From NCBI GenBank assembly GCA_030765185.1, contig JAVCDE010000024.1, positions 443,538-507,537 of the forward strand: 64,000 bases of DNA, read 5' to 3'. The notes below the pieces were generated by a model that was not told where the DNA came from, made no database searches, and saw only the letters and a list, made by a program, of their open reading frames with translations. Position numbers and translations under genes: made by a program. Shown piece by piece: positions 3,455 through 60,834 of the stretch (position 1 is its first letter; every line of letters begins with the position of its first letter). The stretch is from Candidatus Aceula meridiana. Its GTDB lineage: Bacteria > Omnitrophota > Gorgyraeia > Zapsychrales > Aceulaceae.

Positions 3455-4648
3455 ATGGAAACACTTAAAACTTTTTATGATTTAATGTTTCAAACAAGAG
3501 ACGCGCGACGCCTTCTTGTTTTAGATTGCCTTGAAAACAAAACGCTCGAACACAAGGACATCTTACCTCTAAAACAAGCTCTTGCTACACTCGAAGCAAC
3601 TCCAAAGAAAGAAAATCAATATATTCTAAAGCTGGAAGGTGAGAAAACAATCGCCCTTGACTTATCTTATGAAATTGATGAATTAAAAAAGGATCTTCTT
3701 TTTTTAGAAAAAGGCGAAGATGCGCTCTTAAAATTTCTAGAAAACATTCATGCCGATTTTGAGACACAAATTAAAAGCGTCGTGTCTGCGCTTAGCGCAA
3801 AGAAATTTCATACGCTCATTACCGATCGTGATGGCACTGTAAACAATTATTGCGGTCGCTATGCTTCTTCGATTCAATCCGTTTATAATGCAGTCTTTTT
3901 AACGCGCTTTGCTAAAAAACTAGACAATGCCGTTATTTTAACCTCCGCCCCTCTTAGAAGTATCGGACTTGTTGATATCAGCGTTGTCCCACAAGGTGCT
4001 TTTATCCATGCTGCCTCAAAAGGGCGAGAATACATCAATAAAAAAAACAAGCGCTGCCACTTTCCGATAAAGGAAGAAAAACAAAAAAAACTCGATGAAT
4101 TTAACGCCGAGCTTTCTTCTCTTGTTAAAAATCCGCAATATGCAAAGTTTGCTTTAATAGGATCAGGCCTGCAGTTTAAATTTGGCCAAACGACCATCGC
4201 CCGACAAGACATTACAAAATCTATTCCCAAAGACGAATCCTTAAGATTTTTAAAGCTTGTTGAAAATTTGGTTAGCCGTATAGGTAACCAAAAACAATTT
4301 TTCCGTATCGAAGACACGGGTAAAGATGTTGAAATTATTCTAACTGTTGAGAACGTTCAGTCAGGTCTAGATCCGAAAGATTTTGATAAAGGAGATGGCG
4401 TCGCTTTTCTCGAGAAACATGCTTCCCTCCATATGGCAAAAGGTGGGAATTTAATCTGCGGAGATACTCCGTCAGATATCCCGATGATCCCGGCTGCCCT
4501 CCACTATTCAAATGACACAACCGCTATCTTTGTTTCAAATGGAAACGAGGAATTCGAGCAAAAAGTCAAAAGGCTTTATCCAAACACGATTGTTGTCAGC
4601 ACACCCGACATTCTTGTCACGGCTTTAAACGCTCTTGCCCGCGATTAA
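3455..4648 (+). CDS. HAD-superfamily IIB phosphatase (trehalose-6-P / mannosyl-3-phosphoglycerate phosphatase-like) with about 110-aa N-terminal extension
   Basis: HAD motif I ITDRDGT, motif II ILTSA, motif IV ICGDTPSDIPM. Confidence 0.6.
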   Translation: METLKTFYDLMFQTRDARRLLVLDCLENKTLEHKDILPLKQALATLEATPKKENQYILKLEGEKTIALDLSYEIDELKKDLLFLEKGEDALLKFLENIHADFETQIKSVVSALSAKKFHTLITDRDGTVNNYCGRYASSIQSVYNAVFLTRFAKKLDNAVILTSAPLRSIGLVDISVVPQGAFIHAASKGREYINKKNKRCHFPIKEEKQKKLDEFNAELSSLVKNPQYAKFALIGSGLQFKFGQTTIARQDITKSIPKDESLRFLKLVENLVSRIGNQKQFFRIEDTGKDVEIILTVENVQSGLDPKDFDKGDGVAFLEKHASLHMAKGGNLICGDTPSDIPMIPAALHYSNDTTAIFVSNGNEEFEQKVKRLYPNTIVVSTPDILVTALNALARD

Positions 4649-5290
4649 AGCTAATTTCTTTTTTTTAGGCCAGCTCTTAATTTGCGCCTCGCGTTTCATG
4701 GCTTCAACCCGTCCGTCTAATTTCTCTGAATATAGTAACTTTTCAAAACCAAAAACTTTTGTAAAACGCGCGCCCTTACCATTTTTGTGAGCGGCCATGC
4801 GCTTTTCAATATCATTAGTAATCCCGGTATAAAGCGTCTTTTTTTGAGATTCCAAAATATAAACATACCACGCGCCAACCGTAGGTGTATTGATCCGACG
4901 GATTTTAAACTTTCGGTCGGCCCACAGGCCAATAATTTCTTTAACAGGAAAATTCCACTTCTTAATTTCTTCAATAGCTTTTAAAGTCTGTTTCTTTTGT
5001 TCATCTCGGCCTGTGGGATTGCGCACACAATTAAAATGGCCGACAACAGCAACAGCTTGGGATTTATGCCTAAAAACAGATATTTCCACGCGCCTTTTGA
5101 TGGATAAAACACCTGCCTTTTCTTTGCCCTCGGCCAACATTTTATTGGGACCCGCCTCAGTTATCATGTCGATAAAGGCACAGCCATATTTATTCTTTAA
5201 ATACTTAACAACAGGTTCCTGTGTGCGCCCATCCATGCAGTTGATCGCTGTTACAAATTTCTTGCTCATTCTTAAAATACTCCCTTTCAA
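4625..5290 (-). CDS. fusion protein: unknown N-terminal domain plus C-terminal GIY-YIG (UPF0213/YhbQ-like) nuclease domain
   Basis: C-terminal WYVYILESQKKTLYTGITNDIEKRMAAH...IKSW is a GIY-YIG signature. N-terminal 120 aa carry CMDGR and HFNC motifs. Confidence 0.55.
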   Translation of the reverse strand: MKGSILRMSKKFVTAINCMDGRTQEPVVKYLKNKYGCAFIDMITEAGPNKMLAEGKEKAGVLSIKRRVEISVFRHKSQAVAVVGHFNCVRNPTGRDEQKKQTLKAIEEIKKWNFPVKEIIGLWADRKFKIRRINTPTVGAWYVYILESQKKTLYTGITNDIEKRMAAHKNGKGARFTKVFGFEKLLYSEKLDGRVEAMKREAQIKSWPKKKKLALIAGKSV

Positions 5291-5341: not shown

Positions 5342-6148
5342 TTAGCGCTTCTTTTCTGCATCCAGCCTTAAAAATAACAGCCCTTTCCCAAGGTAAGGGC
5401 CAAACATAGAGTCAAAATGCACATTCCTTTTCACGCTAAGATTATCTTGATATTTCTCTTCCATCGCAGAAAAAATCTTTTCAAGCTTTTCTCTCTCCTG
5501 AGGGGATAATTTTCCTGTCGAAGGGCCCTGCATTTTATCTAAATAAAAACGGCTCCTAGCAACCTGAATTTGAGCAATAAACTCATCTTCCTTTGCTTGG
5601 TTAGCCGCTATGGCAAGATACCGGCTAAACGTGTTATTAGAATTCGTAGCCCCTATTCGGCTAACAAGCTTGCGATAATAATCTAATGTTTGGGGCATAA
5701 CTTTTAAGGCTTGTTGAAAATTTAAAATAGCCTTCTCGTATTCTTTGCGATCAAAGAAAATCATTCCCCTGTCAAAAAGATAAGAATAGATATAAGGGTT
5801 TGCTTGAATAGCTTTATCGTAAAATTTAATTGCCTTTGAAAGATTGTTAAGTTGAACATAGCAGTACCCTGTGTTCCCATACGCATAATCTTGTCCGGGG
5901 AGCATATGCAAAAATTCTTTGTAATAATTAATAGCCCGTACAAAATCAAAACTGCGCATCTCTTGCCCCTCGGAGAGCCTTTCAACCAGTTCCCCTTCAA
6001 AATGCTGCTGGTTCCCCAGCCTAGCTAACTCAACCTGAAAAGGCTGCCTTTGCGCCAACTGAAAGAAAATAAAACCCACAACAAAATACAACCACAAGTA
6101 TCGTGTAAAGGCTACCCGAAAGTATTTTATCCAAGAAAATTTTTTCAT
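5342..6148 (-). CDS. membrane-anchored tetratricopeptide (TPR) repeat protein
   Basis: N-terminal TM helix. Repeated AxxYY(K/Q) TPR consensus (AINYYKEF, AIKFYDKAIQANP). Confidence 0.6.
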   Translation of the reverse strand: MKKFSWIKYFRVAFTRYLWLYFVVGFIFFQLAQRQPFQVELARLGNQQHFEGELVERLSEGQEMRSFDFVRAINYYKEFLHMLPGQDYAYGNTGYCYVQLNNLSKAIKFYDKAIQANPYIYSYLFDRGMIFFDRKEYEKAILNFQQALKVMPQTLDYYRKLVSRIGATNSNNTFSRYLAIAANQAKEDEFIAQIQVARSRFYLDKMQGPSTGKLSPQEREKLEKIFSAMEEKYQDNLSVKRNVHFDSMFGPYLGKGLLFLRLDAEKKR

Positions 6149-8388
6149 AACTTTTGCCTGCTACGATTAAAATATTTTAAATCCTTTATAAATAAAAAAA
6201 TCACCCACAAAAACATTCCGTTAAAAATACAAAGGATCAGCACATATATTTCTGCACCGCCTAAAGGAGAATAAACAAGTCGCATAACATTCTTGCCCGC
6301 AGGCAAAACAATTCCCTTAAAAGCAATATTAGCCCTATATATCTTCGTAGGGTTACCATTAAAAAACAATTTCCAATCCTTATGATAGCTGTCGTTATAG
6401 ACTAAAAACTTTTTTGTATCAAAATTTGTTTCTAAGACAATTGAATTTGTGTCAAAGTGGGTTACCGAAAGTTCTTGCGACGGGCCCTTAACGATCTTAG
6501 CCTTTTGAGAGACCTTTGATGATCCTTGAAGAAAATTAAGATCATCATCAAAGTCCTCTTGGGCAACAAGCGCCAAGTTTAAATCCTCCTGAAAAACTTT
6601 TTTCACAAGATCAAGGTCTTCTTCTTTCTTGCCAGAGAGCGCTCGCCCTTTATCATAAATATAAAATTTATACTTTACATATTCTTCAACTGTTTCCTTT
6701 GGCAAATTTTCAAAAAGATAAGCCGTCCACCAACAGGGAAAATGAGAATTTCCTACATAGCTGATGAAGTCGCGCATCTGGAGAAGATGCCGAATGTGAC
6801 TCCTGCTGTTAACAATTCCCTCATAGTCAGGGCGGACATAGCGAAATAAAAAACCATCTGAAGGCGGGAAAATATAATCGATCGCATAGCTCTTATCGTT
6901 AAAAGGATCACCGCGATAATGCCACATCCCTTGAAGAGGCTGAATCGAAACACACACAAAAAGAATCAAAAGCGATAACCATCGATAAATCTTGTTTTTA
7001 AAGAAGAACTCAGAACAAAAATATATAAAACTTAAGAAAATTGTAATATAAAAAGAGGCGATTGTGTTCTTTTGCCAAAAAAGAAATGCTAAAACAGCTA
7101 AATGCGCCGCAAACAGAACCCAAAAAATTCCCCTCTGGCTTAAAACAAATTGCTCTTTGATAATCGTGCGCCACTGCAACGTCGTAAAGAGGACAAAAAT
7201 ACCTACAAAGGCCGGCCAAAAAGACGAAAACGAATGAATAACTTTAAACATAGGAAGAACTTTGTAAAAAACCGCGTACATCTTTCCTGGAGGGCCTAAA
7301 AGAAGAAAATATAAAAGAATGAGCATCAAAAGCAAGGTAAAAGACTTCCGGGTAATACGGTTGAAAGCGCCTAACAAAAAAATAATAACAACAAAAAATG
7401 GAATAAGAATATAATCGCTCCACCAACCACGAAAATACAAATTATTGGAGAAATGCTGACTTAAGAAACTTTTGGAATCAAACGAATCCGAAAGAAGCTC
7501 GTCTGGGTTCATCTCTCCTCCTTTTTTTGAAAGGGCATCTTCACCCTGTGGATGGCGGTCGTGAAAAACAACCTCCTTGTTCTTGGACATGGCAAAAGCC
7601 CGCCAAACAGGCACCAGAGTTACACCTAAGAGTGAAAAACAAACAAAAATTAAAATAAAATTTTTCTTAGAAAAGGTAACCATAGAGGCGACAGAATTTA
7701 CAGCAAACTTAAAGTCGCACACAAAGGTTGTAAAAATAACAAAAAAGAAGACCATTAACCAATACGGAGGGAAATAGGACGAGGCAATGACCATTAAACA
7801 AAAAATAAGCCCAACAAAAAATTTTGGTTTTTGCGTCTCACAAAGACGAAGCCAGCAATAAAAGAACCAAACCATTGGAACATAAATAATTGATATCGTT
7901 GCAAAATTCTCAAAAACACATTGCATCGCAAAAAACATCATCAAAAAAGATAAATATGCACCAAGGTTATCTTTTAAAAAAGCCTTCGCAAAAGAATAAA
8001 AACCCATCATCCCAAAAAAGAAAAAGATAACATTGGTATAGAGATAAGAAAAATAATACGAAATGCCTATTTTATGAAGGATAAAAACAAGCCACCAGAT
8101 AGGATTAAAGATGCCAAAAAAGTTATTCCCGACAAGGTCTGGAACTCCCCACACCACAAAAGGGTTCCACAAGGGGAAGTCCCCCCTAATGATGTTTTTA
8201 ATAAAATAGGTAACCAGCCCATAAATAATATGGCCGTCTCCGACAACAGAACTCTCCCCTGTCAAAAAACCACCAAAAATAAAAACCCAAATCCCAAAAG
8301 GAATAAAAAACTTAAAAATTCTTCCTATCGCCTTTAAGGCAGCAGATTGATTGTAATCCTCAAAGATTCTTTTTAACATAGATGTCAT
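6145..8388 (-). CDS. YfhO-like polytopic membrane glycosyltransferase (GT-C fold) with C-terminal soluble domain
   Basis: 747 aa, more than 12 predicted TM segments, C-terminal globular region. Overlaps the downstream GT2 gene as in GtrB/YfhO-type pairs. Confidence 0.55.
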   Translation of the reverse strand: MTSMLKRIFEDYNQSAALKAIGRIFKFFIPFGIWVFIFGGFLTGESSVVGDGHIIYGLVTYFIKNIIRGDFPLWNPFVVWGVPDLVGNNFFGIFNPIWWLVFILHKIGISYYFSYLYTNVIFFFFGMMGFYSFAKAFLKDNLGAYLSFLMMFFAMQCVFENFATISIIYVPMVWFFYCWLRLCETQKPKFFVGLIFCLMVIASSYFPPYWLMVFFFVIFTTFVCDFKFAVNSVASMVTFSKKNFILIFVCFSLLGVTLVPVWRAFAMSKNKEVVFHDRHPQGEDALSKKGGEMNPDELLSDSFDSKSFLSQHFSNNLYFRGWWSDYILIPFFVVIIFLLGAFNRITRKSFTLLLMLILLYFLLLGPPGKMYAVFYKVLPMFKVIHSFSSFWPAFVGIFVLFTTLQWRTIIKEQFVLSQRGIFWVLFAAHLAVLAFLFWQKNTIASFYITIFLSFIYFCSEFFFKNKIYRWLSLLILFVCVSIQPLQGMWHYRGDPFNDKSYAIDYIFPPSDGFLFRYVRPDYEGIVNSRSHIRHLLQMRDFISYVGNSHFPCWWTAYLFENLPKETVEEYVKYKFYIYDKGRALSGKKEEDLDLVKKVFQEDLNLALVAQEDFDDDLNFLQGSSKVSQKAKIVKGPSQELSVTHFDTNSIVLETNFDTKKFLVYNDSYHKDWKLFFNGNPTKIYRANIAFKGIVLPAGKNVMRLVYSPLGGAEIYVLILCIFNGMFLWVIFLFIKDLKYFNRSRQKL

Positions 8389-9064
8389 TTAGTAAAATAA
8401 AAACTGTTTTCAGTGTCCTCAAAAAACTGCGCGGACGCAAAGCCTTAGTCTTTCCCTCTCGACGGCCGATATCAATGAAAGGAATTTCCTTATAAGTGCA
8501 TCTGGATTTTAAAAACCGGATGTTATAGCTAGCAATCGCTGCAAGCCCATTTGACCGCACATGAAGGCTTTGCATATGTTTGGTTTTACAAATAAAAGGT
8601 CCCGTGTAACCTTTAAGGCGAAGGCCAAACACAACATTCATACAAACCGTAAAAATCTTTGAAATAAATTTACGCAACCGGCCTTGCTTATTATGATTTG
8701 CCTTGTAAGAAATAATCAAATCTACAGAGCCTATCTCTTTAACGGCATCGCGCCAAGACTCCCAAGCAAGATCATTATCGCCCGGGAAAAAAGTGGTATA
8801 CGTTTTTTCTGCTATAGCGGCGCCCTTGCGAAGGCAGCCCCCAAGCCCGCTGTTGATTTCATTGGCCACAACTTTTATTCTTAAATTCTCATGCGCCTTC
8901 TCTTGTGCAATGGCTTGAGTGTTGTCTTCGCTAGCATCATTGATGACAATAATCTCATAATCCTCAACAAGCCCATCGATTGCGTTCACAACGCTTTCGA
9001 TAGCTGCCCGGATATTGCCCTCTTCGTTAAAAGCCGGAATAATAATCGTGAGGTCTTTTGTCAT
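8360..9064 (-). CDS. family 2 glycosyltransferase (DPM1/GtrB-like, soluble form)
   Basis: N-terminal IIIPAFNEEGNI...IVINDASEDNT GT2 signature. Confidence 0.75.
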   Translation of the reverse strand: MTKDLTIIIPAFNEEGNIRAAIESVVNAIDGLVEDYEIIVINDASEDNTQAIAQEKAHENLRIKVVANEINSGLGGCLRKGAAIAEKTYTTFFPGDNDLAWESWRDAVKEIGSVDLIISYKANHNKQGRLRKFISKIFTVCMNVVFGLRLKGYTGPFICKTKHMQSLHVRSNGLAAIASYNIRFLKSRCTYKEIPFIDIGRREGKTKALRPRSFLRTLKTVFILLNDIYVKKNL

Positions 9065-9068
9065 TTTA

Positions 9069-10373
9069 CTATATAAAATTAATATGTTCAGGGGGATTTT
9101 TAATGTCCCACAAGAATTTATTGATGTAGTCCTGACGGCATCCTACTGTGCAGTCACAATGAACATCAATGTTTTCAGCAATGTCCTTGTGAACTTTCCA
9201 ATATTTTGCACTCTGGACAATACCATAATAAGACTTTTTATGAATGTCGCCCATGCAAAAACGTTCTTTTCCGAAAAAAGGGCCGCACGGATAAACTTTT
9301 CCATTGCCGCTGACCTGGCCTAAAAATGGCGTGCCATAGCAAATGTCATACTTGCGAAAACCATTTTTATAAAGCTGTGTTTCCTCGTTAATGTTAATTT
9401 TGCTCCACTTTACCCGCACGAGATAAGAATCATTGCTGTATTTTTCTGCTTTTTTAAGAATGCCTTGAGCCTTTTTGTATGCCGCATGATCAACGCCAAT
9501 CTCGCCATACTCAGTGTCTGAACATTGTTTAATCTGAAAATAGTCGACCCCGAGCTTTACTCCAAGCTTTGCTAATTTAAGAACCTGATCAAAATTCTCA
9601 GGCAACAAAATCATCTGGATTCCCAGCGTGCATTTATAATTATTTTCTTTCTTAATTTTAGCAAAATTTCTTATTTTATCGATAAGCACATCAAAGCTTT
9701 TCTCACTCACTTGATGAATCCTCGCAAAACCTTTTTTGTCTCCAGCGCTTAAATTAAAACGAATAAACGTCGCATTTTTCAAAAGATCATGAGCCCGGTC
9801 CATTCTCAAAAGAAGACCATTCGTAGCAATGCCAACATCAATATTTCTTTTTTTAGCGCGCACCACAGCATCATACATCGCTGGGTTTAGGGTAGGCTCG
9901 CCGTCTCCGATAAAAGCAATGCTCCGCACTTTCAGTCGTCCGCAATCATCAATAAACCGCATCAAAGCATCTCTTTTGATAAGCGCCCCTTTAACCATTC
10001 CTTGCGCAACGCCCATGCAATAAACGCACCCCATGTTACAAAATTTTGTAAGCCCCATATCAATATGGATAGGAGCAATCCGCTTGTTCCTTTGCCAGTC
10101 AAGAACACGATCCAAATGATGCAAAAGCTTATGTCCATCTAACCGAAAACGCTCACTTTTGTTTTTAAAAGTATGTCCAGTATATTGATTAGGCTTCTTT
10201 TTACCTAAAGAAATTTTTTGAGACTTATCGGGACTCTTTCCCAGAAGAGACCGGTCGACCACTTCTTTTCCTGTTCGAAGCGCATGCCCTCCATGTAAAG
10301 TCGTCTTCAAGCTTTTTACAACTTGAATCTTTTGCGATGTTACCGTCTTTTTCTTGCTTGTTCTTTTTTTCAT
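9069..10373 (-). CDS. radical SAM enzyme with C-terminal Cys-rich (SPASM/twitch-like) region and Lys-rich N-terminal tail; paralog of 11752..12819
   Basis: CNMGCVYC CxxxCxxC motif. C-terminal C...CMGD...CDCTVGC. C-terminus WDIKNPPEHINFI parallels the paralog ending WDLKNSSAHVNFI. Confidence 0.7.
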   Translation of the reverse strand: MKKRTSKKKTVTSQKIQVVKSLKTTLHGGHALRTGKEVVDRSLLGKSPDKSQKISLGKKKPNQYTGHTFKNKSERFRLDGHKLLHHLDRVLDWQRNKRIAPIHIDMGLTKFCNMGCVYCMGVAQGMVKGALIKRDALMRFIDDCGRLKVRSIAFIGDGEPTLNPAMYDAVVRAKKRNIDVGIATNGLLLRMDRAHDLLKNATFIRFNLSAGDKKGFARIHQVSEKSFDVLIDKIRNFAKIKKENNYKCTLGIQMILLPENFDQVLKLAKLGVKLGVDYFQIKQCSDTEYGEIGVDHAAYKKAQGILKKAEKYSNDSYLVRVKWSKININEETQLYKNGFRKYDICYGTPFLGQVSGNGKVYPCGPFFGKERFCMGDIHKKSYYGIVQSAKYWKVHKDIAENIDVHCDCTVGCRQDYINKFLWDIKNPPEHINFI

Positions 10374-10377
10374 AGCG

Positions 10378-10866
10378 CTACACTCTTAAATAGCCGGGTT
10401 CTCGGCTTTTCATCCATTGCTTTACCATCTTAGAAAAATTGGGCTTGCCCTTATAGGGATCATAAACCTTTAGCCCCACGATCTTCATCAAAGCCTTATC
10501 ATCTTTTCCACAGCAATGAGATATCCCCAAGAATCGAAAATAATTATCAACACCTGTTGCAATAAATTTAACATTTAAATTCTGATTAACAACATCATTG
10601 CGTATCTGCTCTAAAGCACGAAAGGCTAAAAAATTTACAATCGAATAAACAACCGGAATCAGTCCTGACGCGGCCATCCCGGAGGCAATCCCCACAGTCG
10701 CCTGCTCCATCATCCCAAAATTAAAAATACGCTCTGGAAATTCTTTTTTAAAATCATCAACAACGCCAAAGCCCATATCGCAAACCAAAAGGACAATACG
10801 GCTATCTTTTCTTGCCCAAGCCAACAGTTCACGTCCTATTGCTTTTCTATAATCTTTATCCTTCAC
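10378..10866 (-). CDS. transketolase C-terminal-section subunit, pyrimidine-binding domain only (162 aa)
   Basis: FNFGMMEQATVGIASGMAASG is a TK Pyr-domain motif. Shorter than a canonical C-subunit. Confidence 0.6.
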   Translation of the reverse strand: MKDKDYRKAIGRELLAWARKDSRIVLLVCDMGFGVVDDFKKEFPERIFNFGMMEQATVGIASGMAASGLIPVVYSIVNFLAFRALEQIRNDVVNQNLNVKFIATGVDNYFRFLGISHCCGKDDKALMKIVGLKVYDPYKGKPNFSKMVKQWMKSREPGYLRV

Positions 10867-11716
10867 AACAATTTCCCATTTCTAATTCTTTTTGAGTAGG
10901 AACACGAAAATGAAATTTAGGAACATTTTCCATACACTTAAGCCCATGCCCTTTTATTGTTTTTGAAATAAGTACGCGAGGTGTTTTTGCCTTACCCATA
11001 TTTTTACGCCATTGTTTAAAAATAGAAGTCATTTCACTTAAGCTATGCCCGCTGCATGTCTTAACCTCAAGCCCAAACCCTTTTATTTTCTGCTGTAAAT
11101 CATTCTTTCTTCCTTTAAGAGTCAAAACATTTTCTAAGAAATCCATAGCCTGCAGACGGTTATGATCAACAATAATTGTTAAATTTGTCAGGCCGAATTT
11201 AGCTGCCGCCTGAATCGCCTCCCAGTTGCTCCCTTCCTGCATCTCTCCATCTCCGACAATGCAGTAAACATGATATTTCTTTTTCTGCAGCTTAGCCCCA
11301 AAAGCGATTCCCACCGCTTGAGGAAGCCCATGTCCCAAAGAGCCGCAACTCATCTCAAGCCCACGCGAAAGATCGCGCTCAACGCAGCCAGTCAAAGAAC
11401 TTTTTTTATAAAAAGATTTCCATTCTTTTTGAGAAATATACCCAAAATCAGAAAGAATCGCATAAAGCCCATAACACCCATGGGCTTTTGAAAAAACCAG
11501 TCGGTCGCGCCCTTCCCATGTCGGATCAGAGCTCAAGCTCATGACCTGATAATAAAGCGCAACAAGAATATCCACGCAAGATAAAGATGGCGCAATATGC
11601 CCTGCTTTATTCTGAATACAAACTCGCAAAAGATCCCGGCGAACAAAATCAGCCTTTTTCTTCGCTGCTTGAACAGATAACTTCTTTAATCTTTCATTTT
11701 TTATCTTTATTCCCAT
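10856..11716 (-). CDS. transketolase N-terminal-section subunit (TPP-binding)
   Basis: GHGLPQAVGIAFG and IVGDGEMQEGSNWEA are TPP-binding motifs. Start moved to internal MGIKIKNERL, which removes the overlap with the upstream gene. Confidence 0.75.
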   Translation of the reverse strand: MGIKIKNERLKKLSVQAAKKKADFVRRDLLRVCIQNKAGHIAPSLSCVDILVALYYQVMSLSSDPTWEGRDRLVFSKAHGCYGLYAILSDFGYISQKEWKSFYKKSSLTGCVERDLSRGLEMSCGSLGHGLPQAVGIAFGAKLQKKKYHVYCIVGDGEMQEGSNWEAIQAAAKFGLTNLTIIVDHNRLQAMDFLENVLTLKGRKNDLQQKIKGFGLEVKTCSGHSLSEMTSIFKQWRKNMGKAKTPRVLISKTIKGHGLKCMENVPKFHFRVPTQKELEMGNCCEG

Positions 11717-11751
11717 CACGTGCCTTAAGTATTTAAAAAAATATTTAAAAC

Positions 11752-12819
11752 TTAAATAAAATTTACATGTGCAGACGAATTTTTTAAATCCCACAAATAT
11801 CGGTTAACCTCATCCATGCGGCAATTCACACGGCAGCAAGAAACATCCATTTCTGATTGCACCCACTCAAGAGACTTTTTCCTTTTATCACTTTTCCAAA
11901 TCTTTTCAAATGCCTCTTCATAAATGTTCCCATAATGAAACTTTTCATCACCCAAATAAACACTACACCCCCAGACGTTACCGCCTGCATCAAGATAAGA
12001 CCAAAACGGCAAAGCCAAACAATGCTTATAATCACGCGCTGCCTCATCCCATTTTTTCATTGCCTTCAGACGAAAAATAACAGAAAAAGACTCTGAATTA
12101 AATTGTTGTAACTCATCGCTCAATTTTTCATATTCTTGATACTTGATGTCTTTGTACTCTTTCGTAATGCTTTGAGGATGCTGAGAATACGGCTTAACAA
12201 CAAAATAATCCATTCCAATTTCTCTTGCTAATTTAGCTAGAGAAATCGCTTCTTGCGCATTCTCCGGTAAAAGAACCATCTGCATGCCAAGGGTACAATC
12301 ATATTTTTTGTTTTTACGAATCTCAGCAGCATTACACGCATTCTCAATAACTTTATCAAAATCTTCCTGAGGACATCGATGAATCTTTGCATATGTTTGC
12401 GCCGTTGCCCCATCGATGCCTATTTTAATCCATTTCAAAGAAAAAAGTAGATTTTCTACTTTTTCTTTCTTTAGCAAGACCCCATTTGTTGTTATCGCCG
12501 CATCAATACCACAGTTCTTTGTATGCTTAATAATTTCAACAATATCCTTATGAAGAAGAGGTTCCCCTTCACCAGCGTACATAATACTCTTAAGACCCAA
12601 CTGACCCAACTCTGCTAAACGCTCCATCAAAATATCTTTATCAAGAAAACGCGGTTGATACTTCATGAAGTCAAGCCCGCAATAAATACAACGATGATTG
12701 CACGCGCCCGTAGGGCTTATTTCCATATAAATAGGAGAAATATTCTCACCTTTAAGCCAATCATTGACTCTAGGAATGTGGTACATAAGCTTATGAGAAT
12801 CTATTTTGTACTTATCCAT
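11752..12819 (-). CDS. radical SAM enzyme with C-terminal Cys-rich (SPASM/twitch-like) region
   Basis: TGACNHRCIYC and GEGEPLL. C-terminal CSVYLGD...CCRVNC. Confidence 0.7.
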   Translation of the reverse strand: MDKYKIDSHKLMYHIPRVNDWLKGENISPIYMEISPTGACNHRCIYCGLDFMKYQPRFLDKDILMERLAELGQLGLKSIMYAGEGEPLLHKDIVEIIKHTKNCGIDAAITTNGVLLKKEKVENLLFSLKWIKIGIDGATAQTYAKIHRCPQEDFDKVIENACNAAEIRKNKKYDCTLGMQMVLLPENAQEAISLAKLAREIGMDYFVVKPYSQHPQSITKEYKDIKYQEYEKLSDELQQFNSESFSVIFRLKAMKKWDEAARDYKHCLALPFWSYLDAGGNVWGCSVYLGDEKFHYGNIYEEAFEKIWKSDKRKKSLEWVQSEMDVSCCRVNCRMDEVNRYLWDLKNSSAHVNFI

Positions 12820-12877
12820 TTTTTCCTTATTTTATTAATAAGACTACCACAAGACTCAGCATAACAATTTTCCAAAT

Positions 12878-13810
12878 TTACCTACGCCCCTCCAAATTTC
12901 GAACCTTCGTAGCCACCTCTAAAGGAGAAATTTCTTCCATGCAAAACTTCTTATTCTTACAAATTGGCAAATAGCACGGTCGATAACAGCATCTCAGTCT
13001 TGACGGCAAAATAGAAATATTTGGTATCCCCCTCATGCGCTTGTGATTTGTAGGACCAAACAAAGTAAGCACTTTCTTCCCAAGCGCCTGGGCAATAAGC
13101 TGGCCTAAAGAATCAGAAGTAACAATCATATTGCAACTATCAATCCAGTTAATATACTGACGAATATTTTTATGTCCCTTTTGCCAACTAACCGTAAAAT
13201 CAGACCTTAAAGACTTCTCGAGGCTTTTCCATTTCTTCAAAGGCCAGCCCTTAGTCGGCCACTTTGTTCCAACTGAATAATTAAATCCGATATCATAAAT
13301 GGGCTTCCTTTTTCCCTTTCGGGTCAAAATCATTCCTTGTCCATTCCACTTTTTTCCAACAGCTTGATAAAGAAGCTCAGCGGTGTTGCAATTAATAAAT
13401 CGATGATTTTCTTGGCCGGCAAGAAGATAGCGGGTGGCCTGTCGACAAGTTGCGATATCATGTATCTTTTCGTTAAAATAAAATCCAAATTTCTTTTTTG
13501 CCTTAACTTGCTTTAAAAATGCACAAATACCAATATCTTTTTCTAAATTAATAAAAATGTCGTAATGACTGCACGTAATCTTACGAAACGTCTGGCTTCC
13601 AAAGATAAGAAGCTTATGAATGAAGGGATTGTCTTTGAAAAGCCCCTTAGCCGCAGAAGATGTGACCCACGTGACATGGTCATTTTTATAAAGATGTAGC
13701 AGGGTCGTACAAAAAAGGACATCTCCTAAGCTTACTGTTGTGGAGATACCACGGTCTAAGAATTCAGAAAATCCCGTTTTGATAATAAGTATTTTTCTTT
13801 TCTTCTTCAT
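12878..13810 (-). CDS. GT9 family glycosyltransferase (LPS heptosyltransferase-like)
   Basis: KILIIKTG...SLGDVL N-terminal motif and C-terminal LFGPTNHKR. Start set at MKKKRKILII to abut the upstream stop. Confidence 0.6.
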   Translation of the reverse strand: MKKKRKILIIKTGFSEFLDRGISTTVSLGDVLFCTTLLHLYKNDHVTWVTSSAAKGLFKDNPFIHKLLIFGSQTFRKITCSHYDIFINLEKDIGICAFLKQVKAKKKFGFYFNEKIHDIATCRQATRYLLAGQENHRFINCNTAELLYQAVGKKWNGQGMILTRKGKRKPIYDIGFNYSVGTKWPTKGWPLKKWKSLEKSLRSDFTVSWQKGHKNIRQYINWIDSCNMIVTSDSLGQLIAQALGKKVLTLFGPTNHKRMRGIPNISILPSRLRCCYRPCYLPICKNKKFCMEEISPLEVATKVRNLEGRR

Positions 13811-13811
13811 G

Positions 13812-14711
13812 TTATTCAAACAAAATATCGGTTGAACAAAAGCCATCCTGCTGAAGATGGTTAGTTTTTACTTTTATGTCACATGGGCTGCAAGTCCCAT
13901 AACGAGAACAATCCCTATGCACGTACTCGATTTTTAAACTTGGGTCTAAAAGATTACCAATGGCCACTTCTTTTCTATTGGAATAAAGGTCTGCATGACA
14001 TCGGTAAACAGTCCCATCAGGTGCAATAGGCAAGACCATATTGCGACATTTAACTTTTTTTCCTGTCGCCTTGCCTATGCAAGCATCAGAATATTTATAG
14101 TGGCCATAAATTTTACCATCCCATTCGCCTAGAAATGTCTTTGTGCGAAACTCAACACCTTTTTCTTTGGCGTATTCTCTTATTTCTTCGACGAGATTGG
14201 GATAAGCCGGATGTTCAATGTGAAAAAGCCCAATACTTAAAATTTTCTGAAATTCTGCAATACGGTCAATTAGCTGTCGGTAATCATTCTGTCCATGATG
14301 ATAACTTACGCGAATTGTAGGATACGGCGCATCACGTTTATTCCAATCAAGCGTTTTTAGTGATTGGAAATGTTTTGGCGTAAGGTTTGGTGGTAAGGCT
14401 GTAAGGATATCGACCTTGTGTTGAATGTTCTCCAGAAGATCCCAAATACCTTTATATAAAAAAGGCTCTCCTCCTTGAAATGTCAGAGGAACGCCGTTAG
14501 GAAGTTTTAGCCGATTGAGCGCCGCAATCCATTGCGAAGAACCCACTTCTTCACCCTGCTTTATATTAATATATTTATTATTATAATTTGTTATACAGTA
14601 TTCGCAAGAAAGAAAACACCGATTTGTTAGGTAGACTCCAATGTAGTCTGTGTCTACAGGAAGGTCGACTTGAGGCAAAATTACGCTTGAAAGGTTCTTT
14701 TCTTCAGCCAT
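13812..14711 (-). CDS. radical SAM / SPASM-domain protein
   Basis: CFLSCEYC, FQGGEPFL. C-terminal CRNMVLPIAPDGTVYRC...CSRYGTCSPCD. Confidence 0.7.
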   Translation of the reverse strand: MAEEKNLSSVILPQVDLPVDTDYIGVYLTNRCFLSCEYCITNYNNKYINIKQGEEVGSSQWIAALNRLKLPNGVPLTFQGGEPFLYKGIWDLLENIQHKVDILTALPPNLTPKHFQSLKTLDWNKRDAPYPTIRVSYHHGQNDYRQLIDRIAEFQKILSIGLFHIEHPAYPNLVEEIREYAKEKGVEFRTKTFLGEWDGKIYGHYKYSDACIGKATGKKVKCRNMVLPIAPDGTVYRCHADLYSNRKEVAIGNLLDPSLKIEYVHRDCSRYGTCSPCDIKVKTNHLQQDGFCSTDILFE

Positions 14712-14901
14712 TGTTTTGATTTTGAGTATCCCTCATTATACAAAAAACCCAAATCTTTTCAACAAATATCACCTTCCGTAACAAATCCAAGCATCCTTGG
14801 CGCAAGGACTGAATTTATGAAAAATATTATTATTTCGATAAAAATCTCTTATGATATATAATAATGCTTAATTAAATTCCTCTTTAAAAAATAAAGAAAT
14901 A

Positions 14902-16698
14902 ATGAATCCGTCACAAAAACAAAAAATATTCTATTTCGCGATTATTCTTATCGTTAATTTGATTATTTTCCTTCCTTCGTTCTCTCAAATCGCGCGGCAC
15001 GACCATCTTCACTATATTGCTAACCGGACAGGGGAAGAAAGCTGGTTTTCTTTGGCCGTGCAAAACTCCTTAACATATAATAGAAAACACTACGCCTTCG
15101 CCGAACGCGACCCCCTCTTGTTTCGTCCGCTTTTTTACTTTGTCTTGGGAACAGAGCTATCTTTGTTTGAATACGATTTCCGTCTCTGGCAAATCACTGG
15201 ATTTCTCATGCACATGCTTGTCGCGTGGTCCTTGCTAAGCCTCCTGTTTCGAATTCGCTCAGGCCCGTTGGCTGGAATGTGGACCTTACTTTTTACAGTC
15301 ATGTACGGAAATGTCGAGATGGTTATCTGGCACAATATCAGCAGTTACATGATTTACGTTAGCTGCATCCTCACATGCTTTTATATTTTTTATGATGTCG
15401 ATGAGACCCGTACAATAACTACGCACAAATCCTGGCTTTTATTTCTACTATTTTTTATCAGCTGTTTTATTTATGAAGTCGGATTTTTAATGTCCTTTCT
15501 CTTTTTCGCGGCTTCCTATTTTATTACAACCACTCCACAACAAAAAAAATCCTTTGCCACTAAGTATTGGCGCTTCATGATTTTTTTTCCGGGGCTCTTC
15601 TATCTTTTGCTAAACCTTGTCGTGTTCTTCTCGAAAACTCAAGGCCTGGCAGAAACAAAACACATTGCCCATGCCTCCTTTTTCCAAATATTTAAAGCAA
15701 TCGGCATGAGCATTTACTGGTGGCTTTCAACAGGGCTTTTCCCTTGGCTCTTAAAGCCTGCCTTAGGCGAGAGAGTTATTTTTTATTACAATGGAGCTTT
15801 TTTAAACCCAAGATCTATTTTTCTCATTAATCATCCCACAGCAGCCTTAGGATTAATATCTCTTTTCGGCGCGGCCACATGCTTCTTTATTCTACTTAAA
15901 AAAGGATTAACAAAAAAATTTATTAAACAGAGGCTTCCGTTTCTCATATTAGTTCTAAGCGCTTGGGCTGTTCACCTTGTTGTCATTGTTGTTGGCCGTA
16001 GAATTTGGGCTGATCAACCGGCCCTTGCCAACAACAGTTACTACAACTATTTCTTCTGGTTTTATCTGATTGTCGCCTCTTATAGCCTTATTAATTTTAA
16101 AAAAAATGCTTGCTTCCATAAATTCTTAAATTCAAAAAATTTTTTGCTGGCCTTCTGCTTCTTGCTCATGTTTGTGAATGCGTCAAAAATCCTCACGCTA
16201 AACCGCCGTTATCAAAATGTTTTTCAAAAACGCTTATTAGTTTTAAATAAAGCCAGAAACCTTATCAAAACCCATCGCACCGAGGAAGGCTTTACCTTTA
16301 TCATTGATAAAAACTCTATAACCCCCATGCCGTTCTTGGAAAAAGAACCGCCCGTCCCAGGCGAACAACCCTATGCTTATACGCAAATGATTTATCCAAT
16401 GTTTTTTCAAAAAGAAAATCCTCGCTATATTATTTCTTTGACGCCGGAACAAATTCAGCAAGCTAACTTATCTTCCCTAGAAGCACGGGTTGAGAACTTT
16501 ATCGAGCCTCCAGTCTTGCGATGGGGTCAATCAGACTTAGATTCTTTTCTCCTGCTTGTTAACGCTTATATCGAAACCGGCGAAAAGGACAAGGCGCTTA
16601 GTCTTGTAAATAAAATTCTCAAATTCCACACCAACGATCACCAATTGGTAGAATTTGCTCTAACAATAAAAGAAAAAATAATTAAGCCAAGAAACTAA
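14902..16698 (+). CDS. polytopic membrane protein, possible GT-C/ArnT-like glycosyltransferase, with C-terminal TPR-like tail
   Basis: 598 aa, more than 10 TM helices. Hydrophilic C-terminus. Confidence 0.4.
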   Translation: MNPSQKQKIFYFAIILIVNLIIFLPSFSQIARHDHLHYIANRTGEESWFSLAVQNSLTYNRKHYAFAERDPLLFRPLFYFVLGTELSLFEYDFRLWQITGFLMHMLVAWSLLSLLFRIRSGPLAGMWTLLFTVMYGNVEMVIWHNISSYMIYVSCILTCFYIFYDVDETRTITTHKSWLLFLLFFISCFIYEVGFLMSFLFFAASYFITTTPQQKKSFATKYWRFMIFFPGLFYLLLNLVVFFSKTQGLAETKHIAHASFFQIFKAIGMSIYWWLSTGLFPWLLKPALGERVIFYYNGAFLNPRSIFLINHPTAALGLISLFGAATCFFILLKKGLTKKFIKQRLPFLILVLSAWAVHLVVIVVGRRIWADQPALANNSYYNYFFWFYLIVASYSLINFKKNACFHKFLNSKNFLLAFCFLLMFVNASKILTLNRRYQNVFQKRLLVLNKARNLIKTHRTEEGFTFIIDKNSITPMPFLEKEPPVPGEQPYAYTQMIYPMFFQKENPRYIISLTPEQIQQANLSSLEARVENFIEPPVLRWGQSDLDSFLLLVNAYIETGEKDKALSLVNKILKFHTNDHQLVEFALTIKEKIIKPRN

Positions 16699-27896: not shown

Positions 27897-29372
27897 TTAA
27901 GTATTCTTAATAAATGTTCGCTTTAAAGTGTCGCCTAAGCGTCCTTTTTTGAGCTCTCCCCATAAAGCTGCGAGAATAAGAATTGGCGCTGTTAAAACAA
28001 ACAATATCAACTCTGAAGGCCTAAAAAATTTCACCTCAAAAATGTTCTTCCTTAATATTTTCACAAACCGGCCAGGTGTATAAAAAGAATATCGCATTCT
28101 TCGACCAATTTTTTTTAAGGCAGCGTGACTATACATATCCGAATAAAGCTCTCCTCTGTCTGTCACATGATAGCCCGGAGTTTTTTCGGCAATTTCTTTT
28201 AGCGCTGAAAACTTTTCTATTCTTAATTTATTAAACGTCATTCCGTCAACGCCGATTTCTTTAGCAAACTCCGGAATGCGCAACATCTCTTCTTCAGTTT
28301 CACCGATATTTCCATAAATAAAATATCCATGACAGTAAATCGGATATTTTGTAAGAACCTTAAAAGCCTCTCTGATATCATTAGAATTAAACCCCTTGTT
28401 AAACTGCTCAAGCACCCAGTCATGAGGTGATTCTATTCCTATCAAAAGCGCCTTAAATCCTGCCTTGACCATTTTATCCAAAAGCTGCGGATGCTTGGCA
28501 ATATCAATTCTTGTCTGGGCAATAAAACGCTTATTCAGCTTACGAGCAATAATTTCATCACAAATCTGCTCTGATCTTTTCTTATTGGCAAAAACTTCAT
28601 CATCCCCAAACAAAATAACGCCAGCGGTAGTATTTTCAATTTCATCGACCACAGATTTAATACTGCGTTCAGAATATTTTCGCTTTTGCCCTAGAGGATT
28701 CAAATTAAACGTGCAAAACTTACAATTAAACGGGCATCCTCTCGCTGTCAAAACAGAATCAAAAGAAAGATTCGCAACGCCAACTCCGTTTAGCGATAAA
28801 AGATATTTGTAACGTCTTAGACTTCGATCTGGAGGAACAAGATCTTCCGCGTCGATAAACGGTCTAAAGCCGGTATGAATAAGCTCACCGTTCTCCCTAT
28901 AAGAAATCCCCAAAATATCTTTAAGAGGTACATCACTTAAGATTTCTTTGATCGTAACCTCTCCCTCTCCTCGCACAACGATATCAACTGTTTCGCACCG
29001 ATCAAGCAACTCAACCGCACATTCTGTTGCCTTATACCCACCGACAATTAAAGGAATTTCTTTAGGAATTTTATTTAATAAATCACAAATTTCATCAAAT
29101 TGGCGGTCCCAGGTTAAACTTACTCCGATAAAATCAATTTCTTCTTGCCGAATAAAATCAACTAAATTATTCGTATCAGACAATTCTTTTTCCTGTCTCA
29201 AGTCAAGGACCGTTATTTTCTCCATATAATCCTTGGAGCTTGTGGCGATATACTCAAGACCAACCGGAGGAAAAATCCTCATCGCGCTGGTAGAGCTGCT
29301 TTCAGTGTAAGGATTTAAGAACAAACCATGACTATATTTCTTTTTTTTCTGCGTCTTTTTTACTTCTATCAT
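27897..29372 (-). CDS. B12-binding domain radical SAM protein (class B) with C-terminal TM segment
   Basis: N-terminal cobalamin-binding-like region. RGCPFNCKFCTF CxxxCxxC motif. C-terminal hydrophobic helix. Confidence 0.7.
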   Translation of the reverse strand: MIEVKKTQKKKKYSHGLFLNPYTESSSTSAMRIFPPVGLEYIATSSKDYMEKITVLDLRQEKELSDTNNLVDFIRQEEIDFIGVSLTWDRQFDEICDLLNKIPKEIPLIVGGYKATECAVELLDRCETVDIVVRGEGEVTIKEILSDVPLKDILGISYRENGELIHTGFRPFIDAEDLVPPDRSLRRYKYLLSLNGVGVANLSFDSVLTARGCPFNCKFCTFNLNPLGQKRKYSERSIKSVVDEIENTTAGVILFGDDEVFANKKRSEQICDEIIARKLNKRFIAQTRIDIAKHPQLLDKMVKAGFKALLIGIESPHDWVLEQFNKGFNSNDIREAFKVLTKYPIYCHGYFIYGNIGETEEEMLRIPEFAKEIGVDGMTFNKLRIEKFSALKEIAEKTPGYHVTDRGELYSDMYSHAALKKIGRRMRYSFYTPGRFVKILRKNIFEVKFFRPSELILFVLTAPILILAALWGELKKGRLGDTLKRTFIKNT

Positions 29373-54908: not shown

Positions 54909-54928
54909 AAAAATTCTCCCTTAAAAAT

Positions 54929-55885
54929 CTACTTATCAAAATTTATCCTCTCTCTTTCGATCACGAGGGGTCGTTTTCTTACCTGAAAATGAATAGCGCA
55001 GATATATTCGCCCAAAATACCCAAAAAAACAAGCTGAATCCCTGAAAGGAAAAACAGTGCGACAATCAGCGTCGGAATTCCAGACGGAGCGTTTCCACCA
55101 TTAAAAAACAAAACCGTAATCAAAGAAAAGATTGCATACACAATAGATGCAAAAGAAATAAACAGCCCGGCGATGATGGCCACTCTCATAGGCAAAAAAG
55201 AAAAAGAAATGAGGTCGTTGAGGCCTTCGTCAAAAAGATGATAAAAAGTGTTTTTAGACATCCCCTTCTTCCTCTTTCTCCACTCCAGATCAACACCGAT
55301 AGATTTAAACCCACAGCTGGCAATCATTCCCCTGATGCTCGGATAATAATCATCAAATTGCTTTAAGGCCTGCAGAACTTTCTTGTCAATAAGCTGAAAG
55401 GCGTTGGCATGAAACGGAATGCTGATATATGAAAATTTACGAACGATATGGTAGTAGAAATTTCTTATCATTCTCATTATAATGTTTTCCCTGCGTACTT
55501 TTCTTACGCCAAAAACGACCTCATAACCCTCTTCCCATTTCTTTACAAATTCAATAATGGCCTCCGGGGGATCCTGCAAATCCGCGGCCAGCAAAACAAC
55601 AACGGCATCCCCCGAAGCGTTCATCAGCCCGTTAAAGGTCGATCGAAGGATTCCAAAATTCCTTGAATTAATAATTACTTTAATATTTTTGTCTTTTTGA
55701 GAAATTTCTCTGAGAGCGTTTACCGTATTATCCGTCGATCCATTATCGCAAAAAATATGCTCATATTCATATTGCGCGAGTTCCTCTTTGAATATTAACT
55801 GTACTTTTTCATAGCAATCAAAGATATTTGATTCTTCGTTAAAAACCGGAGTAATCACGCTTATAAATTTTTTTTCGCTTTCCAT
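54929..55885 (-). CDS. polyprenyl-phosphate glycosyltransferase (GtrB/ArnC-like GT2 with two C-terminal TM helices)
   Basis: ISVITPVFNEESNI and DNGSTDNT motifs. Two C-terminal TM segments. Confidence 0.8.
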   Translation of the reverse strand: MESEKKFISVITPVFNEESNIFDCYEKVQLIFKEELAQYEYEHIFCDNGSTDNTVNALREISQKDKNIKVIINSRNFGILRSTFNGLMNASGDAVVVLLAADLQDPPEAIIEFVKKWEEGYEVVFGVRKVRRENIIMRMIRNFYYHIVRKFSYISIPFHANAFQLIDKKVLQALKQFDDYYPSIRGMIASCGFKSIGVDLEWRKRKKGMSKNTFYHLFDEGLNDLISFSFLPMRVAIIAGLFISFASIVYAIFSLITVLFFNGGNAPSGIPTLIVALFFLSGIQLVFLGILGEYICAIHFQVRKRPLVIERERINFDK

Positions 55886-55905
55886 TATAGTCCCACGCTT
55901 TCTAT

Positions 55906-59528: not shown

Positions 59529-59560
59529 TGATGAAGACTCTTCATGTTTTATCGTTAAAC

Positions 59561-60811: not shown

Positions 60812-60834
60812 GATTTATTTGTACTGGCGAAAGC

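Follow-up and report, generated by a model that had tools for sequence, protein, structure and literature searches.

A predicted sugar-building operon of Candidatus Aceula meridiana combines three radical SAM proteins with an altered two-subunit transketolase

The sequence analysed here, called the window, was a stretch of 64,000 nucleotides from Candidatus Aceula meridiana (contig JAVCDE010000024.1, positions 443,538 to 507,537 of the forward strand); proteins of the window matched deposited ones of this Omnitrophota metagenome-assembled genome at 100%. Ten open reading frames (ORFs) lay in a row on its minus strand between positions 4625 and 14711, at the coordinates that an earlier sequence-only reading had given. 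Nine of them, the same-direction genes at 5342–14711, were assigned to one system by ORF calls and Pfam matches. They encoded three radical S-adenosylmethionine (SAM) proteins (rSAM-A, rSAM-B, and rSAM-C), the two subunits of a thiamine diphosphate (ThDP) enzyme related to transketolase (TK), two glycosyltransferases (GT) of families GT9 and GT2, a YfhO-like membrane protein, and a tetratricopeptide repeat (TPR) protein. Pfam supported every domain assignment of the earlier reading, that of YfhO marginally. As judged from gene content, the operon represents one version of a cassette of uncultured anaerobes that is widespread, modular, and predicted to build sugars. The genes and the promoter-like site, in the order of transcription, were as follows.

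14735–14762, minus strand: sigma-70-like promoter-like site, TTGAAA-16-TATAAT, 11/12 matches, 24 nucleotides upstream of the rSAM-C start (consensus scan only)
13812–14711, minus strand: rSAM-C, 299 residues, first gene of the operon (Pfam Radical_SAM, 31.8 bits)
12878–13810, minus strand: GT9-fold glycosyltransferase, 310 residues (Pfam Glyco_transf_9; longest ORF to 13846, 322 residues)
11752–12819, minus strand: rSAM-B, 355 residues, twitch-like, C-terminal HVNFI, conserved anchor of the cassette (Pfam Radical_SAM)
10856–11716, minus strand: ThDP enzyme alpha subunit, TK alpha (Pfam Transketolase_N; longest ORF to 11794, 312 residues)
10378–10866, minus strand: ThDP enzyme beta subunit, TK beta, 162 residues (Pfam Transket_pyr only)
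9069–10373, minus strand: rSAM-A, 434 residues, C-terminal HINFI (Pfam Radical_SAM, 64.4 bits; SPASM, 22.6 bits)
8360–9064, minus strand: GT2 of the GT-A type, 234 residues (Pfam Glycos_transf_2, PF00535, 79 bits)
6145–8388, minus strand: YfhO-like polytopic membrane protein, 747 residues (Pfam YfhO, C-terminal part, 28.8 bits against a cutoff of 28.5)
5342–6148, minus strand: TPR protein, 268 residues, hydrophobic N-terminus (Pfam TPR_1, TPR_2, and related models)

The ten genes had been described as overlapping at their junctions. Two of these overlaps, rSAM-C/GT9 and rSAM-B/TK alpha, were due to the choice of the longest ORF and vanished with other starts. The GT9 gene most likely starts at 13810, one base past the rSAM-C stop and identical to the 310-residue call of NCBI, and the TK alpha gene most likely starts at the ATG at 11716, which has AAGG in front of it and leaves a gap of 35 nucleotides to rSAM-B. 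The short overlaps of TK alpha with TK beta (11 nucleotides), of GT2 with the YfhO-like gene (29 nucleotides), and of the latter with the TPR gene (4 nucleotides) were true ones. The intergenic gaps of the operon were 51, 4, 4, 35–58, and 190 bp. The site at 14735–14762 was the best sigma-70-like promoter match of the region.

The radical SAM domain (PF04055) scored above the Pfam cutoff in rSAM-A, rSAM-B, and rSAM-C, and the cysteine triad CX3CX2C was invariant in each. rSAM-A and rSAM-B had been called paralogues, in agreement with their identity of 33% over the full length, their common N-terminal motif (I/L)D(S/G)HKL..H..R...W, and their common C-terminus H(I/V)NFI. The triad of rSAM-A (Cys112, Cys116, and Cys119) was accompanied by five conserved C-terminal cysteines (residues 284, 345, 363, 408, and 412), and that of rSAM-C (Cys32, Cys36, and Cys39) by another five (residues 222, 238, 268, 274, and 277; 16 homologues). 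The conserved C-terminal cysteines of rSAM-B were four (Cys267, Cys285, Cys329, and Cys333). The designation of the three proteins as SPASM-type held in part. The Pfam SPASM matches of two of them were marginal, at 24.8 and 22.6 bits with the cutoff at 21.5, and that of rSAM-C stayed below it at 18.1 bits, but the full seven-cysteine, two-cluster motif CX9-15GX4C...CX2CX5CX3C...C was present in none of them. The four cysteines of rSAM-B fit a predicted single auxiliary cluster in a twitch-like domain, and the cysteine sets of all three proteins fit a putative twitch or partial SPASM domain with one such cluster. The rSAM-C family was small and unnamed (254 matches). Most members of the rSAM-A family had about 367 residues; the protein of the window carried an N-terminal extension of about 75 residues, low in complexity and rich in Lys and Ser, which was common only to its closest orthologues (loci L023 and L126).

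The model of rSAM-B showed the radical SAM fold, a partial TIM barrel. In structure comparison it matched, given as score and aligned length, SkfB (25.1, 283), BlsE (25.1, 288 of 327), DesII (24.9, 318), SuiB (23.6, 284), viperin (21.5, 241), PqqE (21.5, 251), MoaA (20.6, 255), and anSME (20.2, 266). The best solved relatives by sequence were BlsE, MoaA, and DesII. Because all three act on nucleosides or nucleotides, this kinship is compatible with a nucleotide-sugar substrate of rSAM-B, of which it is no proof. rSAM-B resembled BlsE, DesII, BtrN, SpeY, and AprD4 in joining the partial TIM barrel to a C-terminal auxiliary-cluster, twitch-like domain. However, the identity to these sugar-acting enzymes was 14–21%, the (I/L)D(S/G)HKL motif and the HxNFI end were specific to the family, and only the cassette provides a constant ThDP partner. 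The earlier statement that radical SAM proteins are atypical in a glycan operon was overstated, since sugar-acting twitch/SPASM enzymes are known and BlsE and DesII were among the closest structures. One member of the rSAM-B family (P0423, 631 residues) contained an intein with an HNH endonuclease domain ahead of the radical SAM core.

Radical SAM proteins of this kind could alternatively serve as cross-linkers of ribosomally synthesised and post-translationally modified peptides (RiPPs), or as maturases of a partner enzyme or a glycan-acceptor protein, and not as sugar editors. The NCBIfam equivalog cutoff was reached by none of rSAM-A, rSAM-B, rSAM-C, the TK subunits, the GT9-like protein, and the YfhO-like protein, and every score with RiPP or peptide-maturase models was far under the cutoff (for example, 96 against 380 and 52 against 340). 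The anSME model TIGR03942 gave 17 bits with rSAM-C against a cutoff of 349 and was not among the top matches of rSAM-A or rSAM-B; no sulfatase gene was found in the neighbourhood of the operon. The sequence-only reading had named a known peptide-maturase family with a nearby precursor peptide as counter-evidence, and neither was found: no credible precursor ORF was present in the operon gaps, including the 190-bp divergent intergenic region upstream. A conserved RiPP recognition element, protease, or transporter was also missing from the cassette, and all conserved neighbours and fusion partners described below were sugar-pathway or ThDP enzymes. The peptide-maturase reading was rejected for want of family membership and of a precursor ORF, and a maturing role of any of these kinds is considered most improbable.

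The cassette TKs were aligned to E. coli TktA using MAFFT, and to the split TK of Carboxydothermus (PDB code 6yak) using HMMER; residue numbers are those of E. coli. The latter enzyme was the best PDB match of TK alpha (4e-46). The roles of the residues are known from the structures of E. coli and yeast TK. Residues His26, His66, Asp155, Asn185, His261, Arg358, Glu411, Phe437, and His473 were unchanged in all cassette TKs, and the ThDP/Mg-binding and catalytic His/Glu residue set of transketolase was complete in every one. The window pair thus shared with TktA and 6yak the fold, the ThDP/Mg motif GDG...N, and the catalytic residues. In contrast, the sugar-phosphate substrate residues of EC 2.2.1.1 (His100, Ser385, His461, Asp469, and Arg520) were not retained. 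His461 was replaced by Gly, and Asp469 by Leu or Gln, in all cassette TKs (H461G and D469L in the window pair). The C1 hydroxyl of the donor ketose is bound by His100; this residue was Cys in 30 of 30 homologues of the short type, to which the window pair belongs, and in this type only. The Arg520 position was absent from the short type and occupied by Thr or Lys in the long type, and the Ser385 region was deleted in the window TK. In the HMMER alignment with 6yaj/6yak, 'THaG..GeDGaSHQ' was replaced by 'TGvd..rfLGiSHC' in TK beta, substitutions that match the TktA-based ones. An apparent Arg520 in the alignment to 6yak was rejected, because the GP anchor placed the end of the short subunit two residues before this position, as did MAFFT. 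Furthermore, TK beta had no Transketolase_C domain, so the three-domain architecture of TK was incomplete, and the NCBIfam transketolase models gave 197 against a cutoff of 488. With substrate residues and C-terminal domain lost and cofactor residues kept, the window pair, which lies in a glycan operon, is predicted from its residues not to be a pentose-phosphate transketolase. The truncated enzyme, with H100C, H461G, and D469L, shows in nature the kind of active-site re-engineering that is attempted on transketolase in biocatalysis.

Homologues of rSAM-B numbered in the thousands, and the top 120 were nearly all about 355 residues long and 64–70% identical. When one genome per GTDB species was searched, 492 relatives were confirmed, with orthologues 59–70% identical. 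The best 80 of these 492 belonged to Omnitrophota, Planctomycetota, Nitrospirota, Thermodesulfobacteriota, Elusimicrobia, Auribacterota, Hydrogenedentota, and archaea. The Planctomycetota among the carriers were Brocadiaceae, Scalindua, Pirellulales, and Sedimentisphaerales, anammox bacteria included, and the archaea were Methanoperedens and metagenome-assembled genomes labelled Nanoarchaeia and Undinarchaeota. In addition, 529 matches at E <= 1e-30, mostly of full length, were found among 1.84 billion cluster representatives. An exact-sequence look-up of the rSAM-B of the window, made for its contig context, gave no match.

The surroundings of rSAM-B were compared in 85 loci anchored on this protein, in which ORFs were called and classified against the window proteins and by all-against-all clustering. 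The cassette was composed of exchangeable slots, in which SDR denotes a short-chain dehydrogenase/reductase and PDH-E1 the E1 component of pyruvate dehydrogenase.

ThDP slot, directly downstream of rSAM-B: TK alpha on the same strand in 55–56 of 85 loci, with the short 162-residue beta subunit in 29 and a long one of about 310 residues in 19
ThDP slot where TK was missing: PDH-E1 alpha (14 loci) and E1 beta
Further downstream slot: GT2 and rSAM-A, or a 229-residue methyltransferase and a further rSAM-B-like protein, hardly ever both sets in one locus
Upstream slot, first option: SDR, an HldE-like kinase/nucleotidyltransferase, and a GmhA-like SIS isomerase (counts of 52, 39, and 41 of 85 loci)
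Upstream slot, second option: rSAM-C and GT9 in 15–19 of 85 loci

The HldE-like and GT9 genes were mutually exclusive, occurring together in none of 19 loci, and rSAM-A was paired with GT2 in 26 of 33 rSAM-A loci. Three loci (L006, L081, and L151) had nearly the full gene set of the window including the YfhO-like gene. With rSAM-C as a second anchor, 37 metagenome loci were collected, 22 of them with enough downstream sequence. GT9 adjoined rSAM-C in 35 of the 37; the gene after GT9 in the 22 was SDR (16 loci) or rSAM-B (4 loci), and a ThDP enzyme, E1 or TK, lay within 6 kb in 18. Enzymes of the acetolactate synthase (ALS) type, with a YerE-like fold, occurred in sister cassettes as well (for example, L088:16528–18312). 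Domain fusions agreed with this picture: partners of the rSAM-B-like domain were SIS (four cluster members, separate assemblies), the cytidylyltransferase-like domain CTP_transf_like (three separate 50% clusters), a methyltransferase, and, in a single protein discussed below, an ALS-type ThDP enzyme. The association of these genes recurs across phyla and is therefore far beyond chance. The statement of the sequence-only reading that no described pathway has this gene set was borne out, as neither a curated family (NCBIfam equivalog) nor a description in the full-text literature was found; however, the set is no one-off.

The exchange of TK for the non-orthologous PDH-E1 bears on the proposal that the TK pair is a precursor-supply or housekeeping enzyme that makes sedoheptulose-7-phosphate and does not act on the glycan sugar. 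Sedoheptulose-7-phosphate, a TK product, is the substrate of GmhA, and GmhA-like and HldE-like genes occur in the same cassettes; Arg358 and all cofactor residues are kept, too. However, PDH-E1 alpha/beta cannot make sedoheptulose-7-phosphate and takes the same slot, which argues against such a supply role and leaves the making and transfer of a ThDP-bound two-carbon carbanion as the sole common property. The substrate residues changed throughout (His461 and Asp469 everywhere, His100 in the entire short type), the missing Arg520, and the lost C-terminal domain speak against this proposal as well, as does a second non-canonical split TK of the window, which sits in a CDP-glucose glycan operon that has no need of heptose. 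On the residues, the exchange, and this second enzyme, the housekeeping role was rejected and is given very little credence, and the earlier view of a dedicated transketolase was upheld.

The model of the GT9-like protein (predicted local distance difference test score, pLDDT, 89) had strong structure matches only to GT9-type enzymes, namely 3tov (22.8), WaaC (22.2), WaaF (20.7), and TibC (17.7), and the next matches fell to about 10. It showed the GT9 heptosyltransferase fold, the GT-B fold of WaaC and WaaF with an N-terminal catalytic Asp. The family contained an invariant SLGDV motif, in which SxGD was kept; by analogy with Asp13 of WaaC, we take SxGD to be the catalytic motif. Only the fold search was informative, since a PDB sequence search with the protein gave no match, and the equivalog model gave 24 bits against a cutoff of 170. 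Unlike WaaC, WaaF, and TibC, whose fold and SxGD motif it shared, the protein had an obligate radical SAM partner and a conserved C-terminal motif CX4CX4CX5C (Cys286, Cys291, Cys296, and Cys302 in the numbering of the 322-residue ORF), which may form a metal or Fe-S site. This motif was reminiscent of the iron-finger of the TibC heptosyltransferases, a resemblance at the level of the motif.

A heptose-type sugar is the predicted substrate class of the cassette because of this fold and of the GmhA-like/HldE-like module, which lay directly upstream of rSAM-B in 39 (GmhA-like) to 52 (HldE-like) of the 85 loci. These neighbours supported in outline the earlier idea of a radical- or ThDP-based editing of the skeleton of a heptose-derived sugar. 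As in the ADP-heptose pathway of GmhA, HldE, and HldD, GmhA-like, HldE-like, and SDR genes flanked rSAM-B in most loci; unlike in that pathway, all of them scored below the equivalog cutoffs, and the domain order of the HldE-like protein was reversed (examples are L017:7552–9084 and L003:7882–9411). In many loci, a second, stand-alone nucleotidyltransferase of about 160 residues was present. A preprint on anammox S-layer glycoproteomics mentioned heptose glycans, and no transketolase or radical SAM genes.

The GT2 had no transmembrane segment in a hydropathy scan. Its matches to polyprenyl-phosphate transferases, the models of ArnC, AglJ, and PpgS and the structures of GtrB-like sll0501 and DPMS, were weak (E values of 1e-7 to 5e-5) and no stronger than those to other GT2 enzymes. 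It is a candidate polyprenyl-phosphate sugar synthase. In the YfhO-like protein, a candidate GT-C transferase, some 13 hydrophobic segments were predicted, together with a large soluble region around residues 486–703 and a final transmembrane segment. It had no NCBIfam family match, and its PF09586 match covered profile positions 745–827 of 835 only, which correspond to the C-terminal 80 residues. Orthologues of this protein were encoded behind the cassette in L006, L081, L151, L103, and L116, and TPR orthologues adjoined the YfhO-like gene in all of these loci but L151. The succession of a small GT2 and a YfhO-like polytopic protein, found twice in the window, resembled the three-component glycosylation systems CsbB/YfhO, GtrB/GtrC, and ArnC/ArnT. 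However, the GT2 was devoid of transmembrane helices, and only the C-terminal domain and one short motif near the N-terminus were similar to YfhO. No flippase was identified for the operon.

These transferases also bear on whether the product is a surface-glycan sugar at all or rather some soluble metabolite, cofactor, or lipid head group (cyclitol-like or nucleoside-type). The cassette moves as a unit between bacteria and archaea, rSAM-B is unusually conserved, and genes for HpnJ-like B12 radical SAM proteins co-occur, all of which would suit such a product. Furthermore, some loci had no obvious GT-C; YfhO homologues were found in 4 of 85 loci, and GT-C calls of the PMT or MptA type in one further neighbourhood. 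Against it stand the GT2 in 44 and the GT9 in 19 of the 85 loci, and the translational coupling of the window cassette to the GT2, YfhO-like, and TPR genes. A product outside the surface glycan is therefore regarded as quite unlikely.

The analysis shows which genes are present, that the cassette is conserved and modular, that the active site of the TK is altered, and which folds rSAM-B and GT9 have; every chemical step of the following scheme is inferred. The substrate would be a nucleotide-activated, ADP-heptose-like sugar, taken from the pool of the cell in the present genome and supplied by the dedicated GmhA-like/HldE-like module in many others. rSAM-B, of the structural class of BlsE and DesII, would take a hydrogen from the sugar and form a carbonyl group by dehydrogenation or dehydration; an NAD-dependent SDR would make the carbonyl in sister cassettes that have no rSAM-B. 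The two-subunit ThDP enzyme would then add a C2 unit, from a 2-oxo acid (pyruvate or hydroxypyruvate) or a ketose, to this carbonyl, and the sugar would thereby become C-branched or chain-extended (C9). The GT2 would place the sugar on polyprenyl phosphate, with another radical edit made by its constant partner rSAM-A, and the YfhO-like GT-C with its TPR helper would transfer it to a periplasmic or surface acceptor. The obligate pair of rSAM-C and the GT9-fold transferase might use a heptose or install it on an acceptor. That the cassette builds a skeleton-edited sugar of the heptose type and delivers it to a surface acceptor is held to be somewhat probable, and the individual steps are less certain than the scheme as a whole.

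The role of rSAM-B as the carbonyl maker was suggested by its alternation with SDR in the slot immediately before the ThDP enzyme. With the same cassette and substrate class, rSAM-B could instead be an epimerase, an enzyme of rearrangement or ring contraction, or one that forms C-C bonds (for example, by adding 5'-deoxyadenosyl), acting after or alongside the ThDP step on a sugar whose carbonyl is made otherwise. The occupation of this slot by SDR in 16 and by rSAM-B in 4 of the 22 rSAM-C loci is most simply explained by functional equivalence, and alkene-forming or adenosine-processing genes were not conserved in the cassette. A role other than carbonyl formation is thus rather unlikely for rSAM-B.

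The proposed addition of a C2 unit to a carbonyl has known parallels. YerE catalyses the ThDP-dependent two-carbon branching in the CDP-yersiniose pathway, and PDH-E1-like pairs act in the sugar pathways of avilamycin, aldgamycin, and paulomycin. As in these systems, a ThDP enzyme of the cassette sits in a sugar-tailoring operon beside a presumed keto-sugar-forming enzyme, and the slot of sister cassettes is filled by PDH-E1 alpha/beta or by an ALS-type enzyme. The likeness of the window enzyme to YerE or AviB1/B2 is one of working only, as it is of the transketolase type and homology to the ALS- or E1-type branching enzymes was not found. In addition, a radical SAM protein takes the place of an NAD-dependent dehydratase as its partner, a heptose rather than a 6-deoxyhexose is the likely substrate, and the hosts are uncultured anaerobes, whereas those of YerE and the PDH-E1 pairs are Yersinia and actinomycetes. 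The lincosamide octose pathway employs the transaldolase LmbR, the GmhA-like LmbN, and a kinase, a phosphatase, and a nucleotidyltransferase. There, too, a C-C-forming enzyme of central metabolism stands beside a heptose-like activation module and leads to a higher-carbon sugar nucleotide; however, this enzyme is a transaldolase that transfers a C3 unit, no radical SAM protein takes part, and the product is an antibiotic.

Several observations weigh against the proposed scheme. Transketolases usually attack aldehydes, not ketones, and it is assumed in which order rSAM-B and the ThDP enzyme act and what the position and nature of the carbonyl are. None of the three radical SAM families includes a characterised enzyme. 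The NCBIfam scores of the HldE-like (148 against a cutoff of 521) and GmhA-like proteins (88 against 209) were low, and the former had the nucleotidyltransferase at the N-terminus and the PfkB kinase at the C-terminus, the reverse of E. coli HldE. On account of these scores and this order, the sugar may not be a canonical heptose. Genes for heptose activation, GmhA-like and HldE-like, were looked for in the 64-kb window and none was found, so that a heptose would need a source elsewhere in the genome. A protein of 951 residues (P0399) that joins an ALS-type ThDP enzyme to an rSAM-B-like domain was met only once, on a contig of 4.4 kb, and may be an artefact of assembly or gene calling. Finally, the loci were picked by homology to rSAM-B or rSAM-C, and the frequencies given above are conditional on these anchors.

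The general kind of pathway, editing of a nucleotide-sugar skeleton for a surface glycan, is known; the recurrent pairing of radical SAM and ThDP enzymes is undescribed, and the three radical SAM families are unnamed. An oxygen-independent route to branched or C9 heptose-derived sugars through an obligate pair of a radical SAM enzyme and a ThDP carboligase of the TK, E1, or ALS type is proposed tentatively, at somewhat less than even expectation. A similarly guarded view is taken of the suggestion that bacteria of hundreds of uncultured anaerobic lineages, together with some archaea, share such a route and that it yields a class of surface sugars chemically unseen so far. Should the inferred chemistry prove right, the radical SAM proteins of the cassette would define three new families and its ThDP enzyme a new functional class of carboligases that derive from transketolase and act on activated sugars; a radical/ThDP logic would join the known ways to unusual sugars. 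The cassette was found in about 490 species-level genomes from several bacterial phyla and some archaea and therefore probably specifies a surface component that is common, though not yet seen chemically, among the dominant organisms of anoxic groundwater and sediments. Enrichment cultures of anammox bacteria (Ca. Brocadia and Ca. Scalindua) and of Ca. Methanoperedens BLZ2 carry the cassette, which makes the question experimentally approachable.

A second glycan operon was found at 52545–62731 on the minus strand of the window, with the following genes.

61916–62731, minus strand: nucleotidyltransferase
60835–61977, minus strand: CDP-glucose 4,6-dehydratase (459 bits against a cutoff of 278)
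59561–60811, minus strand: sugar C-methyltransferase
58425–59528, minus strand: DegT aminotransferase
57649–58428, minus strand: N-formyltransferase
56813–57652 and 55906–56820, minus strand: second split transketolase (Gly461, Gln469, and Lys520)
54929–55885, minus strand: GT2
52545–54908, minus strand: second YfhO-like protein, a distant paralogue of the first

This gene content suggests a C-methylated, N-formylated, and possibly C2-branched 6-deoxy amino sugar as the product. With two such operons, the genome uses the combination of sugar tailoring, a non-canonical split TK, a GT2, and a YfhO-like protein twice. The path of the second operon would start from a classical 4-keto-6-deoxy sugar, in textbooks the acceptor of C2 branching by ThDP enzymes such as YerE. 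This operon is counted as parallel support for the scheme.

The scans of the 64-kb window for transfer RNA genes and Rfam families gave no match. The remaining genes considered were the following.

4625–5290, minus strand: fusion of Pro_CA_2 and GIY-YIG domains (Pfam), 221 residues, probably outside the system
3455–4648, plus strand: trehalose-6-phosphate phosphatase of the T6PP_N/T6PP_C type (273 bits), converging on the operon end
14902–16698, plus strand: polytopic protein of 598 residues with at least 7 hydrophobic segments, divergent from the operon promoter region
27897–29372, minus strand: B12-binding radical SAM protein

The first of these, the tenth ORF of the row, had been counted as a member of the operon. 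It was dropped, as a homologue was found in 0 of the 85 related loci. The fusion of a putative carbonic-anhydrase-like domain to a GIY-YIG nuclease domain, directly downstream of the operon, was unusual in itself. The 598-residue membrane protein was likewise dropped as a part of the operon, having no Pfam match and no homologue in 150 related loci. The B12-binding protein was 32% identical to the HpnJ-like B12 radical SAM protein that accompanies the cassette in 43 of the 85 loci; in the window, its gene lay 13 kb away from the operon, just before the DEAD-box helicase gene at 29855–31108 and on the same strand as the latter.

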